From assembly GCF_045037415.1 (NCBI RefSeq), contig NZ_CP173438.1: 64,000 nt of DNA. The stretch is one strand, 5' to 3'. Position 1 is the stretch's first letter, and each line of letters begins with the position of its first letter. A program made the position numbers. Positions 6,001 to 12,000 of the stretch are shown here, piece after piece. This stretch comes from Escherichia coli. GTDB taxonomy: Bacteria > Pseudomonadota > Gammaproteobacteria > Enterobacterales > Enterobacteriaceae.

Positions 6001-9000
6001 GTCACTTTCGCTGCCATTGCAGAGGGGGAATATCACCTCTGATGCCGTATTTAACTTCTTCGATAACCTGTTACCCGATAGCCCGATTGTACGTGACCGG
6101 ATCGTTAAACGTTATCATGCTAAATCCAGACAACCGTTTGATTTATTGTCAGAAATAGGGCGAGACAGCGTTGGTGCCGTGACGTTAATCCCCGAAGATG
6201 AAACCGTAACGTGTCCGATAATGGCATGGGAAAAGCTTACTGAAGCCAGACTTGAAGAAGTATTAACGGCTTATAAAGCAGATATCCCGTTAGGCATGAT
6301 TAGAGAAGAAAATGACTTTCGCATCTCGGTTGCTGGCGCACAGGAGAAGACTGCGCTGCTCAGAATAGGCAATGACTGGTGCATTCCGAAGGGAATAACG
6401 CCAACGACGCACATTATCAAATTGCCGATTGGCGAAATCAGACAGCCCAATGCGACGCTCGATCTTAGCCAAAGCGTTGATAATGAGTATTACTGTTTGC
6501 TGCTGGCGAAAGAACTCGGGTTGAATGTTCCGGACGCAGAAATCATTAAAGCGGGAAGGGTGCGCGCGTTAGCGGTCGAACGTTTTGACAGGCGTTGGAA
6601 TACTGAGCGAACGGTTTTACTTCGCTTGCCACAGGAGGATATGTGCCAGACATTCGGTTTACCTTCATCGGTGAAATATGAATCAGATGGAGGCCCCGGT
6701 ATCGCGCAAATTATGGCTTTTTTGATGGGGTCCAGCGAGGCGCTGAAAGATCGCTATGATTTTATGAAGTTTCAGGTCTTCCAGTGGTTGATTGGCGCAA
6801 CGGATGGCCATGCAAAAAACTTCTCCGTATTTATTCAGGCTGGCGGCAGTTATCGGCTCACACCATTTTACGACATCATTTCGGCATTTCCGGTCCTTGG
6901 CGGTACGGGAATACACATCAGCGATCTCAAACTGGCAATGGGGCTTAACGCATCCAAAGGCAAAAAAACGGCAATCGATAAAATTTATCCGCGACATTTT
7001 CTGGCGACAGCAAAGGTGCTGAAATTCCCGGAAGTGCAGATGCATGAAATCCTGAGTGACTTTGCCAGAATGATTCCGGCAGCACTGGATAACGTGAAGA
7101 CTTCATTACCGACAGATTTTCCGGAGAACGTGGTGACGGCAGTTGAAACCAATGTGTTGAGGTTGCACGATCGGTTAAGCCGAGAATACGGTATTAAGTA
7201 AGATATGGGGTTTTGGTCGTTGTTAATGAGCAGAAATCATGAACCGCCAACGACTGGATTCGCCCTTGGTTTATATTGGTGCGCATAATGTATATTATGT
7301 TAAATTGATTATGAAGGTCCTTTACTTCACCATTCACATCCACACACAGATAAATCAATACGTTGTGATTTCTGACTTCCCTCCCGTTTCGGTAGAAAAA
7401 TCAACCTCTGTTCAGTGATGGCACACCATAGACCATGAGCTGGATAATTGCGTTGTTTACAGCAGCCAGCGCTTTGATGGCACTATATCCCTCACGCTTC
7501 TGAATATAATTCATAGCGCCGTGTAATTATCTTTAATCTCAAGTTAGCTAATCTCAGCATATCGTGTTGATATGCAATGTGAAATACAGAGAACAGTGAC
7601 TACAGCTGATGGAGGAAGCTATTTCCGATATTCGTCAACTTCCAAATATATCGTTTAAAACAGGTATCAGATATGAAAGCACTACTAATTACTGCATTAT
7701 TCATGGGATTCAGTTAGTTTCACCAGGCAAACATTAACCATAGCTAATGTTTATAGCCATATAAACTATTAGTACCTCTTGACCTTTCCTGACACTTCCC
7801 TTGTTCGCAATAATATTCTGTTTAGTCGCTGTTTATAAATAACATGCATAATGAAATCGTCATGTTATTTAGCGACATAAAATGTTTTTACAAATACTCT
7901 CTACAACAAGTGCAGCAATAAAATTGTTGTGAATAGGTGTCCTTGTAATTTAAAGATATTATCATTCTTCGTGAAATGTAATAACCATGGAAACTATATT
8001 CTCAGGGCAACATCCAATCAAGAATGATTCTTGTTTTATAAGCAATAACAGAATAACTTAATTGTTAACTCTCTTTATTCAGCTACTTAAATATAAATTT
8101 TGGAGAATTATGAAACTCAAACATGTCGGTATTATTGTCGTTTCTGTGTTGGCGATGTCGTCTGCTGCGGTAAGCGCAGCCGAGGGTGATGAATCAGTAA
8201 CGACCACTGTTAATGGCGGTGTAATTCATTTTAAAGGTGAAGTGGTAAATGCCGCTTGTGCGATTGATTCAGAATCAATGAACCAAACGGTTGAGCTGGG
8301 TCAGGTTCGTTCTTCTCGCCTGGCTAAAGCGGGTGACCTCAGCTCCGCCGTTGGCTTCAATATCAAGCTGAATGATTGTGATACCAATGTTTCCAGTAAT
8401 GCAGCTGTTGCATTCCTGGGTACTACTGTCACCAGTAATGACGATACATTAGCGCTGCAGAGTTCAGCGGCAGGCTCTGCCCAAAATGTCGGTATCCAAA
8501 TTTTGGACCGTACAGGGGAGGTATTAGTACTTGATGGTGCTACTTTTAGCGCTAAAACTGACTTGATTGATGGCACGAATATACTGCCGTTCCAGGCTCG
8601 TTATATTGCTCTCGGGCAGTCAGTAGCTGGTACTGCAAATGCTGATGCGACCTTCAAAGTTCAATATCTATAATTCACTCTTAAGGTGACTATGCGTCAT
8701 CTGAAATTGAAACAGGGTGTGTGTGGCATGGCTACGCACACCCGAGAAATTCACCAATGTTCATCTCATTATTAATGAAAAATGGTTTGTATTTTGGAGC
8801 GGTATGAAAAATCACATAATATCTAAACGATCAATAAACAACAGTAGTTAAACTTGCTGTTATTTAAAATATTTACTTGGTAGCAAGGTTTTCCTATCAA
8901 AAGAGAACCAACATTTATTACAAACGCATTAAGTCTGGAAACCCGGCGACTCGCCAATGTATTAGCAATATTTACCGATTGTCTGATGTAACGGTTTCCC

Positions 9001-12000
9001 CGCTTATCCTCTTAACACATGGAGAATGCATCAGATGCAAACTACGCGTACCCCCTACTCTGTTTCCTTTATGGCGACAGTGTTACTTTTATTTCTCTTT
9101 GCTTGCCATAGCACCATTGCCAACGCAGCTGTCGCACTTGGTGCGACGCGGGTAATTTATCCGGCAAACCAGAAACAGGTTTTATTGCCTGTCACGAATA
9201 ATGATCCTGCCAGTGTCTATCTCATTCAGTCATGGATAGAAAATGCGGGTGACCAGAAAGATACCCAGTTTGTCATTACCCCACCGCTTTTTTCCATGCA
9301 AGGTAAAAAAGAGAATACGCTTCGGATAATCAACGCCACTAATCATCAGTTACCAGGCGACCGTGAAAGCCTGTTCTGGGTTAATGTTAAAGCTATCCCT
9401 GCTATGGAAAAAGACCAGAAGAATGAGAATACATTACAGCTGGCAATTATTAGCCGCATAAAAATGTTTTATCGCCCCACGCATCTGGCAATGGCACCTG
9501 AAGAAGCGCCTGCAATGCTTCGGTTTCGTCGCAGCGGTAGCATACTCACTCTTATTAATCCAACGCCCTACTTCATTACCGTAACAAATATGAAAGCAGG
9601 AAATAGCAATCTCCCAAACACCATGGTGCCGCCAAAAGGTGAAGTATCGGTGGATATCCCGCATGCTGTAACCGGGGATATCAGTTTTCAGACAATCAAT
9701 GATTACGGTGCATTAACTCCGCTTATTAAGGCAACCATGCAGTAAGCCAGTGACCTAATTAATAATAAACTCAATCGGGATTAAAAATGACAGCCTTTCG
9801 TGCCGCATTTAAGGCATATCGTATGCATCAGGTGTTAATACTGCCTCGCTTTGCACGGCTTACCTTTGCCCTTGGCTTAGCAACTGCGGTTTTTCCCGTT
9901 GACGCAGAGTATTATTTTAATCCACGGTTTTTAAGCAATGACCTTGCTGAATCTGTCGATTTATCTGCCTTTACTAAGGGACGCGAGGCCCCACCTGGTA
10001 CATATCGGGTCGACATTTATTTGAACGACGAATTTATGGCTAGTCGGGATATTACTTTTATTGCAGATGATAATAACGCAGATCTCATCCCATGCCTGAG
10101 TACAGACCTTCTTGTCAGTCTTGGCATAAAAAAATCAGCATTATTAGACAACAAGGAACATTCGGCAGATAAACATGTGCCGGACAACAGCGCATGCACA
10201 CCACTTCAGGATCGTTTGGCTGACGCATCATCTGAGTTTGATGTTGGTCAGCAACATCTGTCACTCTCCGTTCCGCAAATATATGTCGGCAGAATGGCTC
10301 GCGGCTATGTTTCTCCTGATCTGTGGGAAGAAGGAATAAATGCCGGGCTACTAAACTATAGTTTTAATGGTAATTCTATTAATAACCGTAGTAACCATAA
10401 TGCAGGAAAATCCAACTATGCATATTTGAATTTACAGAGTGGCATCAACATTGGTAGTTGGCGACTGCGCGATAACTCAACGTGGAGTTATAACAGTGGG
10501 AGTAGCAATTCATCTGACAGCAATAAATGGCAGCATATCAATACGTCGGCTGAACGTGACATTATTCCGTTACGCTCACGGTTAACAGTGGGTGATAGTT
10601 ATACCGATGGCGATATTTTTGACAGTGTGAACTTTCGTGGCCTTAAAATAAATTCAACAGAAGCGATGTTGCCCGATAGCCAACATGGTTTCGCTCCGGT
10701 GATTCATGGTATTGCTCGTGGCACCGCACAAGTGAGTGTAAAACAGAATGGATACGATGTTTATCAGACTACTGTCCCACCCGGCCCTTTTACTATTGAT
10801 GATATCAACTCTGCGGCCAATGGTGGTGATCTGCAAGTAACCATAAAAGAGGCAGACGGCAGTATTCAGACATTATATGTTCCTTATTCGTCTGTTCCGG
10901 TTCTCCAACGTGCTGGATATACGCGTTATGCACTTGCCATGGGGGAATATCGTAGTGGGAATAACCTGCAAAGCTCCCCCAAGTTCGTACAAGCAAGCTT
11001 GATGCATGGTCTGAAAGGAAACTGGACACCTTATGGCGGAATGCAAATTGCAGAAGATTATCAGGCCTTCAACCTTGGTATTGGTAAAGATTTAGGACTT
11101 TTTGGTGCCTTTTCTTTCGATATCACGCAGGCCAATACGACGCTTGCAGATGACACCCGTCACAGCGGACAATCGGTTAAATCCGTCTACAGCAAATCCT
11201 TCTACCAGACGGGAACCAATATCCAGGTCGCAGGATATCGCTATTCTACGCAAGGTTTTTATAACTTATCCGACAGTGCATACAGTCGAATGAGTGGTTA
11301 CACCGTCAAGCCTCCTACCGGAGACACCAGTGAGCAGACACTATTTATTGATTATTTTAATCTGTTCTACAGTAAGCGTGGTCAGGAACAAATAAGCATC
11401 TCTCAGCAGCTTGGACATTACGGTACGACATTTTTCAGTGCCAGTCGCCAAAGTTACTGGAACACGTCACGCAGCGACCAGCAAATATCATTTGGATTAA
11501 ATGTGCCGTTTGGTGATATTACGACTTCGCTGAATTACAGCTATTCCAATAATATATGGCAAAACGATCGGGATCATTTACTCGCTTTTACACTTAATGT
11601 TCCCTTTAGTCATTGGATGCGTACAGACAGTCAGTCGGCATTTCGTAATTCAAACGCCAGTTACAGTATGTCAAACGATTTGAAAGGCGGCATGACCAAC
11701 CTATCAGGGGTTTATGGCACTCTGCTGCCGGATAATAACCTGAATTATAGCGTTCAGGTCGGTAACACCCAAGGGGGTAATACATCGTCTGGCACCAGTG
11801 GTTACAGTTCTCTTAATTATCGTGGAGCTTACGGTAATACGAATGTCGGTTACAGTCGGAGTGGTGACAGCAGCCAGATTTATTACGGAATGAGTGGTGG
11901 GATTATTGCTCATGCTGATGGCATCACCTTTGGACAGCCGCTGGGCGACACAATGGTTCTGGTTAAGGCTCCTGGCGCTGATAATGTCAAAATAGAGAAC

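Follow-up and report, generated by a model that had tools for sequence, protein, structure and literature searches.

A conserved sense-strand hairpin in the untranslated spacer between the major pilin and chaperone genes of the Escherichia coli F9 fimbrial operon

Protective structures at the 3' end of messages, together with differential decay of polycistronic transcripts, have been documented for malEFG, papBA, cfaAB, and about 12% of the operons of Escherichia coli (PMC5927463). In this study, we analysed a hairpin located in the untranslated spacer between the major pilin gene and the chaperone gene of the F9 fimbrial operon, using a stretch of 64,000 nucleotides from E. coli (RefSeq assembly GCF_045037415.1, contig NZ_CP173438.1), which is called the window throughout. 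Among the described systems with a comparable arrangement, the hairpin between malE and malF separates a highly needed 5' gene from less needed 3' genes and, once an endonuclease has cut downstream of it, stops 3'-5' exonucleases, for which no U-tract is required. For the papA 3' stem-loop with its processed papBA mRNA and for cfaAB of CFA/I, as far as the account in PMC5927463 goes (Baga 1988 and Jordi 1993 are cited there), the pilin message outlasts or outnumbers the rest of the transcript owing to processing by RNase E and to a 3' structure that resists RNases. In the sister operon for type 1 fimbriae, the RefSeq annotation of K-12 shows a small RNA (sRNA) of 35 nt, fimR2 (b4838), directly 3' of fimA and beginning 11 nt past its stop codon. 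FimR2 was described as a regulator of motility and biofilm that is derived from the 3' untranslated region (3'UTR), processed by RNase E, and binds CsrA; the fimA-fimI stem-loop is cut by RNase E, and CsrA binding requires two GGA motifs, one of them in the loop (PMC9723502).

Based on open reading frames (ORFs) and the RefSeq annotation of a genome with 100% identity, the window comprises the hipBA–F9 (Fml/ydeQRS)–ydeP region of E. coli, in which the F9 pilin gene carries the RefSeq label 'type 1 fimbrial major subunit FimA'. F9/Fml fimbriae are relevant to chronic urinary-tract infection, cattle colonisation, and plant attachment, and their regulation is known at the promoter level only (H-NS, temperature). 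The region was detected in about 3,600 of 5,426 complete E. coli genomes, in a single copy in every one of them.

A stable and conserved hairpin in the sense strand

The ORF of the pilin gene ends with a TAA whose last base is 8673, and the RefSeq start of the chaperone gene is 9035, so that the spacer coordinates given in the first-pass annotation (8674-9034) were right and its length amounts to 361 bp. The same annotation had described a hairpin with a 9-bp stem in this spacer. The hairpin is indeed present, but its stem is stronger than described and comprises 13 pairs: the RNA reads GGGUGUGUGUGGC-AUG-GCUACGCACACCC, with a loop of 3 nt and a stem that is built, from its base, of seven Watson-Crick pairs, one U·G, two Watson-Crick pairs, one G·U, and two further Watson-Crick pairs. 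Its G+C content is 66% compared to 37% in the surrounding spacer, and it begins 41 nt past the pilin stop codon, i.e., beyond the footprint of a terminating ribosome. With a minimum free energy of -23.8 kcal/mol (z = -4.8), the hairpin is far beyond chance, as none of 200 shuffled versions was equally stable and 300 dinucleotide shuffles made over the full spacer yielded no 45-nt fold as stable (mean of the best folds -11.6 kcal/mol). Among all 45-nt folds of the window, it ranks first on the plus strand and second over both strands. Other folds of -22 kcal/mol or below were located at +2841, +24361, +/-30596, -47666, +57511, +58741, and -61721, and at 30596, both strands fold strongly, the minus strand with -25.8 kcal/mol.

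The antisense version of the hairpin folds with -16.0 kcal/mol and is thus about 8 kcal/mol weaker, both G·U pairs being turned into A·C mismatches. This asymmetry speaks for an element in the sense RNA of the operon rather than for a palindrome in the DNA or an antisense element. A terminator on the minus strand, where the hairpin is followed by UGUUUCAAUUUC, was also considered and rejected, based on the weak fold with its two A·C mismatches and on the lack of a minus-strand gene that it could end. Likewise, a repeat of the REP/BIME type was discarded, as about 3,600 genomes each contain the hairpin once, and so does the window.

For the analysis of conservation, 13 alleles were aligned, including a divergent group (L003, L089, L090) with a spacer 82% identical to that of the window. 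Main and divergent alleles share 77% identity in the middle of the spacer, compared to 81% and 75% at the third codon positions of the pilin and chaperone genes, respectively, which indicates that most of the spacer drifts at an approximately neutral rate. The hairpin stands out from this background: in the bin 8704-8733, covering the 5' arm, the loop, and 11 nt of the flank, only one of 30 columns is variable, compared to 8-12 in the neighbouring spacer bins. Moreover, positions 8709-8748 are at least 99% identical in 3274 of 3590 E. coli genomes (91%), whereas a control 40-mer (8850-8889) reached this identity in 881 of 3581 genomes (25%). The sole recurrently variable site of the stem is 8737, where G forms a U·G pair, A a U-A pair (O145 and others), and U a U·U mismatch (divergent group), and in one strain G8744U adds a pair to the stem. 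Comparison of the alleles hence indicates that the hairpin is under purifying selection; its structure is backed by stability, strand asymmetry, and conservation rather than by covariation. The comparison was confined to E. coli, as other species yielded no orthologue (see below). Indels within the hairpin of L094 were discounted, since this record is a noisy long-read assembly with indels all around.

Structured RNA behind the pilin genes of related operons

A scan of species-representative genomes with the F9 chaperone as query resulted in 79 loci, namely one F9 operon of the E. coli type and operons with chaperone identities of at most 69%, i.e., at the level of paralogues, from Klebsiella, Raoultella, Citrobacter, Kluyvera, Serratia, Yersinia, Proteus, and others, but in no F9 orthologue from another species. 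The single operon of the E. coli type (L008, JARKOR010000214.1; chaperone 97% identical to that of the window) belongs to a mislabelled metagenome-assembled genome named 'Candidatus Nanosynbacter', which it almost certainly entered through faulty binning.

For each of 58 related operons, the most stable 45-nt fold was determined in the first 100 nt past a stop codon; its median was -16.0 kcal/mol behind the pilin gene versus -9.5 kcal/mol behind the chaperone gene (Wilcoxon p = 2.6e-9). The whole clade thus shares, as a design feature, structured RNA directly behind its major pilin gene. The fold behind the F9 pilin gene is stronger than those of all 58 operons, and none of the other gene ends in the F9 operon revealed anything comparable, with best folds between -7.3 and -10.0 kcal/mol. 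Some of the elements behind the pilin gene, in Serratia, Yersinia, and Proteus, possess an additional U-tract and resemble true terminators.

An element of the FimR2 type was identified in 39 relatives, within the 60 nt past the stop codon of the fimA-like gene, and consists of CA(A/G)GGA(U/A)GC followed by GGGCC-AGGAN-GGCCC; its versions in Serratia and Yersinia have a U-tract in addition. Of the cells in the alignment of these 39 sequences, 93.6% are paired, and three pairs show GC<->AU double changes. The element spans at least 12 genera of the Enterobacterales (loci L009-L063, L084, L087; alignment A2), and Rfam 15 contains no family for it, nor anything else that matches the F9 region. 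The F9 hairpin resembles FimR2 (b4838; FimR2S in Salmonella) in being a stable, conserved, untranslated stem-loop of the sense strand directly after the stop codon of a major pilin gene, and both belong to sister operons of the same clade. However, the two differ in their make-up: elements of the FimR2 type have a stem of 5-6 bp (GGGCC/GGCCC), an AGGAN loop, the upstream motif mentioned above, CsrA binding, and fimI downstream, while the F9 hairpin has a GU-rich stem of 13 bp and the loop AUG, and its operon lacks fimI. A covariance model (R1) built from the 39 homologues and searched against positions 7000-15000 with filters off gave no match in 8671-8760, even at E<=10. Furthermore, the GGA motif is absent throughout 8674-8795, and CsrA binding is therefore not expected. 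A homologue of FimR2 was thus rejected despite the shared position, and by these comparisons the F9 hairpin holds the position of FimR2 without belonging to its family. That the hairpin is unrelated to the FimR2 of the sister operon, in an operon without fimI, is mildly novel. Sister operons would then have arrived at different RNA elements for one and the same problem of dosage, i.e., the CsrA-binding FimR2 in type 1 fimbriae and an unrelated, longer stem in F9.

Possible roles of the hairpin

Taken together, the structure present behind pilin genes across the clade, the selection on the hairpin, and its strength on the sense strand make a role in the dosage of pilin versus assembly proteins the most reasonable reading. 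In our best explanation, to which we give about an even chance, the hairpin is a sense-strand element of the polycistronic F9 mRNA, namely a stem-loop between two cistrons that either protects a 3' end or forms one. It would most likely represent an undescribed case of a well-known kind and an ordinary design of pilus operons. In accordance with a protective stem-loop, a stable structure lies just 3' of a gene needed in excess, outside the path of the ribosome, and is conserved above the neutral level. The first-pass annotation had compared the hairpin to the partial terminators that set the stoichiometry of pilin and assembly genes. Of this idea, a structured and selected element on the sense strand after the pilin gene was confirmed, but not a canonical partial intrinsic terminator.

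Transcription would start at the single mapped promoter and run through the pilin gene into the 361-nt untranslated, AU-rich spacer. For strain CFT073, 5'RACE placed the F9 start at a G located 251 nt 5' of the pilin ATG; this start, corresponding to 7859 in the window, is the sole mapped F9 transcription start site (TSS) and lies 5' of the pilin gene (PMC3966885). Positions 7823-7859 match the promoter description given there letter by letter. In the spacer, transcripts would be cut by RNase E or ended by Rho and then trimmed 3'-to-5' back to the hairpin, so that a stable pilin mRNA reaching from 7859 to about 8743, with a length of about 885 nt, would remain. The segment for chaperone, usher, and adhesins would be rarer, less stable, and possibly poorly initiated owing to a structured initiation region, and the outcome would be far more pilin than assembly machinery. 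All these steps concerning RNA ends, decay, and dosage are the ones that we infer. Expression data are sparse; in a pst mutant of avian pathogenic E. coli, c1936 (pilin, -3.2), c1935 (chaperone, -3.7), ydeR (-2.2), and ydeQ (-1.6) drop together, which fits one operon. Compared to the described systems, the malE-malF element is a REP repeat with hundreds of copies, whereas the F9 hairpin is unique in the genome. The 3' structure of pap has been described as a terminator, and pap and CFA/I fall into different usher clades and show no sequence relation to F9.

Several points weigh against this explanation. Two substitutions, G8737U in the divergent group and G8726U in one strain, each break one pair of the stem, and no double compensatory change was detected inside the hairpin among the 13 alleles, its sequence being conserved as much as its structure. 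The literature search gave no data on RNA ends, half-lives, or abundance for the F9 locus. The ratio of C to G at 8880-9080 (1.4-1.85, with an operon 90th percentile of 1.43) is modest for a Rho loading site, and Rho loading is kept here as a presumed step, not as evidence. Finally, in microarrays of bile-treated O157, the distal genes ydeQ and ydeR were raised 2.2-fold versus 1.4-fold for the pilin gene (Z2200), which could reflect a separate downstream promoter. If the hairpin indeed sets the ratio of pilin to machinery, F9 would have a second, post-transcriptional control point that is an easy target for engineering F9 expression; nothing in our analysis overturns the current understanding of these fimbriae.

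Among the alternatives, the region of the hairpin might be released as a stable trans-acting sRNA, i.e., a functional counterpart of FimR2, which would be compatible with a protective role and which we consider possible, though unlikely. The hairpin occupies the place of fimR2 in K-12, the biogenesis and function of FimR2 are documented, the FimR2-type element is kept with covariation in 39 related operons, and the hairpin with its A/U-rich flanks is the most conserved part of the F9 spacer. On the other hand, neither the failure of the covariance model at 8671-8760 nor the lack of GGA motifs, and with them of the CsrA binding that is the hallmark of FimR2, agrees with such a counterpart, and the sRNA catalogues and the literature contain no mention of the F9 spacer locus. 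In a more far-reaching version, which we rate as somewhat less probable still, the F9 lineage may have swapped an ancestral FimR2-fimI module for an unrelated, much stronger hairpin that is cut out as a CsrA-independent 3'UTR-type sRNA with its own targets, e.g., in cross-talk with motility genes or those of other fimbriae at the low temperature that allows F9 expression.

A promoter in the spacer from which the chaperone, usher, and adhesin genes would be transcribed regardless of the pilin promoter is similarly improbable. The first-pass annotation had noted that the spacer is large enough to hold one, and the spacer is indeed long and AT-rich; its length, however, is better explained by gene order, since relatives carry a fimI-like gene at this place (see below). 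A scan of both strands of the spacer for sigma-70 promoters resulted in no match of at least 9/12, and on the plus strand one site with 8/12 was detected (TTTGGA-16-CATAAT, 8793-8820), compared to 3.2 expected in shuffled sequences. This site shares its -10 element CATAAT with the mapped F9 promoter, which also scores just 8/12 in the hexamer scan, so that a weak promoter could escape detection by sequence, and a downstream promoter would account for the stronger bile response of ydeQ and ydeR. However, the -10 element is not kept in the divergent allele (CATAGA/TAGAGT), the surrounding region evolves neutrally, and the pst mutant shows co-regulation of the pilin and chaperone genes with the distal ones. 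An internal promoter as initially proposed was thus not supported, and the known TSS remains the one upstream of the pilin gene.

That the hairpin is a partial Rho-independent terminator, at which RNA polymerase stops in some rounds, seems doubtful. Its stem is stable, G+C-rich, and located directly after a highly expressed gene, and at the same position, relatives from Serratia, Yersinia, and Proteus harbor a hairpin with a U-tract, e.g., GGCCUGUUUUCAGC and AGCCUUAUACUA...UAGUAUAAGGCUUUUUU. These canonical intrinsic terminators between pilin and chaperone genes (Proteus mirabilis L053; fimA-like loci of Serratia and Yersinia) resemble the F9 hairpin in their operon position and in having a long or G+C-rich stem, but they have a run of U directly after the stem, and the F9 hairpin does not. 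Taking about five or more U in the 8 nt directly 3' of the stem as the mark of a canonical intrinsic terminator, we found GAGAAAUU in the window; most alleles read GAGCAAUU and the divergent allele reads GAAAAAAU, and no allele has a U-tract. Although the stable G+C-rich stem is present, the hairpin is therefore not a canonical intrinsic terminator, and the terminator scan listed none within 8674-9034.

It is also quite improbable that nothing here is functional, with the hairpin being a fortuitous palindrome on a (GT)n tract and the spacer the scar of a lost fimI-like gene. FimI is reported to be needed for the biogenesis of type 1 pili. About 45 related operons are ordered fimA-like, fimI-like, chaperone, while the F9 operon (8110-14472) lacks a fimI-like gene. 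In a neighbour-joining tree of the chaperones, the fimI-positive loci L056, L059, and L060 fall outside a clade of F9 and the main fimI-positive group (179 of 200 bootstraps), and by parsimony, this placement suggests that fimI was lost in the F9 lineage. The spacer may be a deletion scar from this loss, with gene-order parsimony as the sole basis, and most of it evolves at the synonymous rate. No remnant of fimI was detectable at either level: with a hidden Markov model (HMM) of 45 FimI-like proteins, the six real frames of the spacer scored below shuffled ones, and nhmmer with 37 fimA-to-chaperone intervals gave no match in the F9 spacer, so that a fimI pseudogene or relic was rejected. A lack of function is also at odds with a hairpin that is far more conserved than its surroundings, strand-asymmetric, and placed where relatives keep structured RNA.

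A DNA-level site that helps to silence F9, e.g., a palindrome bound by a regulator or an intragenic tract for H-NS nucleation, is very improbable. In its favour, H-NS represses F9 and binds its AT-rich promoter region (PMC3966885), and although the sequence of the spacer middle diverges by 23%, all alleles keep an A+T content of 71-77% there. However, the conserved part is the G+C-rich hairpin rather than the AT-rich tract, and the palindrome is imperfect exactly where the sense RNA has G·U.

Remaining spacer and neighbouring genes

The coordinates of all features are summarised in Table 1. The spacer carries no annotated feature in the 100%-identical genome or in the related RefSeq records examined, an Rfam search gave no match, and the literature contains no description of the F9 spacer, of RNA ends within it, or of an internal TSS. 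The 13 aligned alleles revealed eight columns with single-nucleotide indels, which shows that the spacer is non-coding. A small ORF at 8693 (MRHLKLKQ...), located behind AAGGUGA, was rejected for the same reason and because its ATG is changed to ATA in most alleles. Apart from the hairpin, the spacer looks like mostly neutral filler in the allele alignment, with the exception of a small conserved island and the ribosome-binding region of the chaperone gene. In one predicted fold, this island pairs with 8993-9006.

Table 1. Features of the F9 region in the window
Feature	Position	Strand	Description or basis
hipB-hipA	5595-7201		ORFs and RefSeq annotation
F9 operon promoter and TSS	7823-7859	+	-35 TAGTCG 7823-7828, 18-bp spacer, -10 CATAAT 7847-7852, +1 G 7859
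F9 (Fml/Yde) major pilin gene	8110-8673	+	187 aa; orthologue of fmlA/c1936/Z2200; ORF; between hipA and ydeS/ydeR/ydeQ/ydeP
Untranslated pilin-chaperone spacer	8674-9034	+	361 bp; 37% G+C; single copy per genome
Conserved A/U-rich 5' flank of hairpin	8698-8714	+	CAUCUGAAAUUGAAACA
Hairpin	8715-8743 (8715-8727/8731-8743)	+	13-bp stem, loop AUG, no U-tract 3'; -23.8 kcal/mol
AT-rich spacer middle	8744-8913	+	71-77% A+T in all alleles; approximately synonymous evolutionary rate
Second conserved island	8914-8945	+	ACGCAUUAAGUCUGGAAACCCGG; 3/30 variable columns; inverted repeat I2
Chaperone initiation region, predicted occluding structure	8981-9037	+	RNAalifold, RNAfold
F9 periplasmic chaperone gene	9035-9745	+	orthologue of c1935/Z2201; ORF; RefSeq 'fimbria/pilus periplasmic chaperone'
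Usher gene	9787-12438		ORFs and RefSeq annotation
ydeS, ydeR, ydeQ	12452-14472, then ydeP		ORFs and RefSeq annotation

Translation of the chaperone may be damped by structure in its initiation region, which we regard as a lead only. The Shine-Dalgarno sequence GGAG (9021-9024) is located ten nt upstream of the RefSeq start, and an in-frame ATG at 9026 is just 1 nt away from it. According to the predicted fold, A and U of the chaperone start codon lie within a helix (8981-8990/9027-9036), and CUCU at 9009-9012 is predicted to pair with the GGAG. In the divergent allele, this helix shows one compensatory pair (A8990G with U9027C) and one change of U·G to U-A, together with a broken end pair and a weakened pairing to the Shine-Dalgarno sequence. 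The fold of the region has a modest z of -2.2 to -2.6, and a competing fold exists.

Between positions 8969-8986 of the F9 spacer (ATTTACCGATTGTCTGA) and the sfmA-sfmC spacer of K-12 (L088 1803-1819, ATGTACCGGTTGTCTGA), a nearly identical 17-mer was observed. It is not significant and was rejected as a shared motif, since 65 of 1000 shuffles scored equally.

Downstream of the last operon gene ydeQ, the following 100 nt (14473-14572) revealed no strong hairpin, and as the best 45-nt fold reaches merely -8.7 kcal/mol, the operon ends without an obvious intrinsic terminator. On the other side, the interval between hipA and the pilin gene (7202-8109, about 900 bp) is very AT-rich, with a G+C content of 28-36% near 7700-8100. 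In other strains, a pseudogene fragment of an AraC/helix-turn-helix-type regulator lies in this interval, and the genome identical to the window has no annotation there. Insertions of IS2 or IS1 and N-terminal truncations of the pilin gene occur in several lineages, including L091 FDAARGOS_497, and the truncations also in BL21 and strain E04. Lineages with a damaged pilin gene still keep the spacer and the downstream genes, and in BL21, the chaperone and usher genes are pseudogenes.

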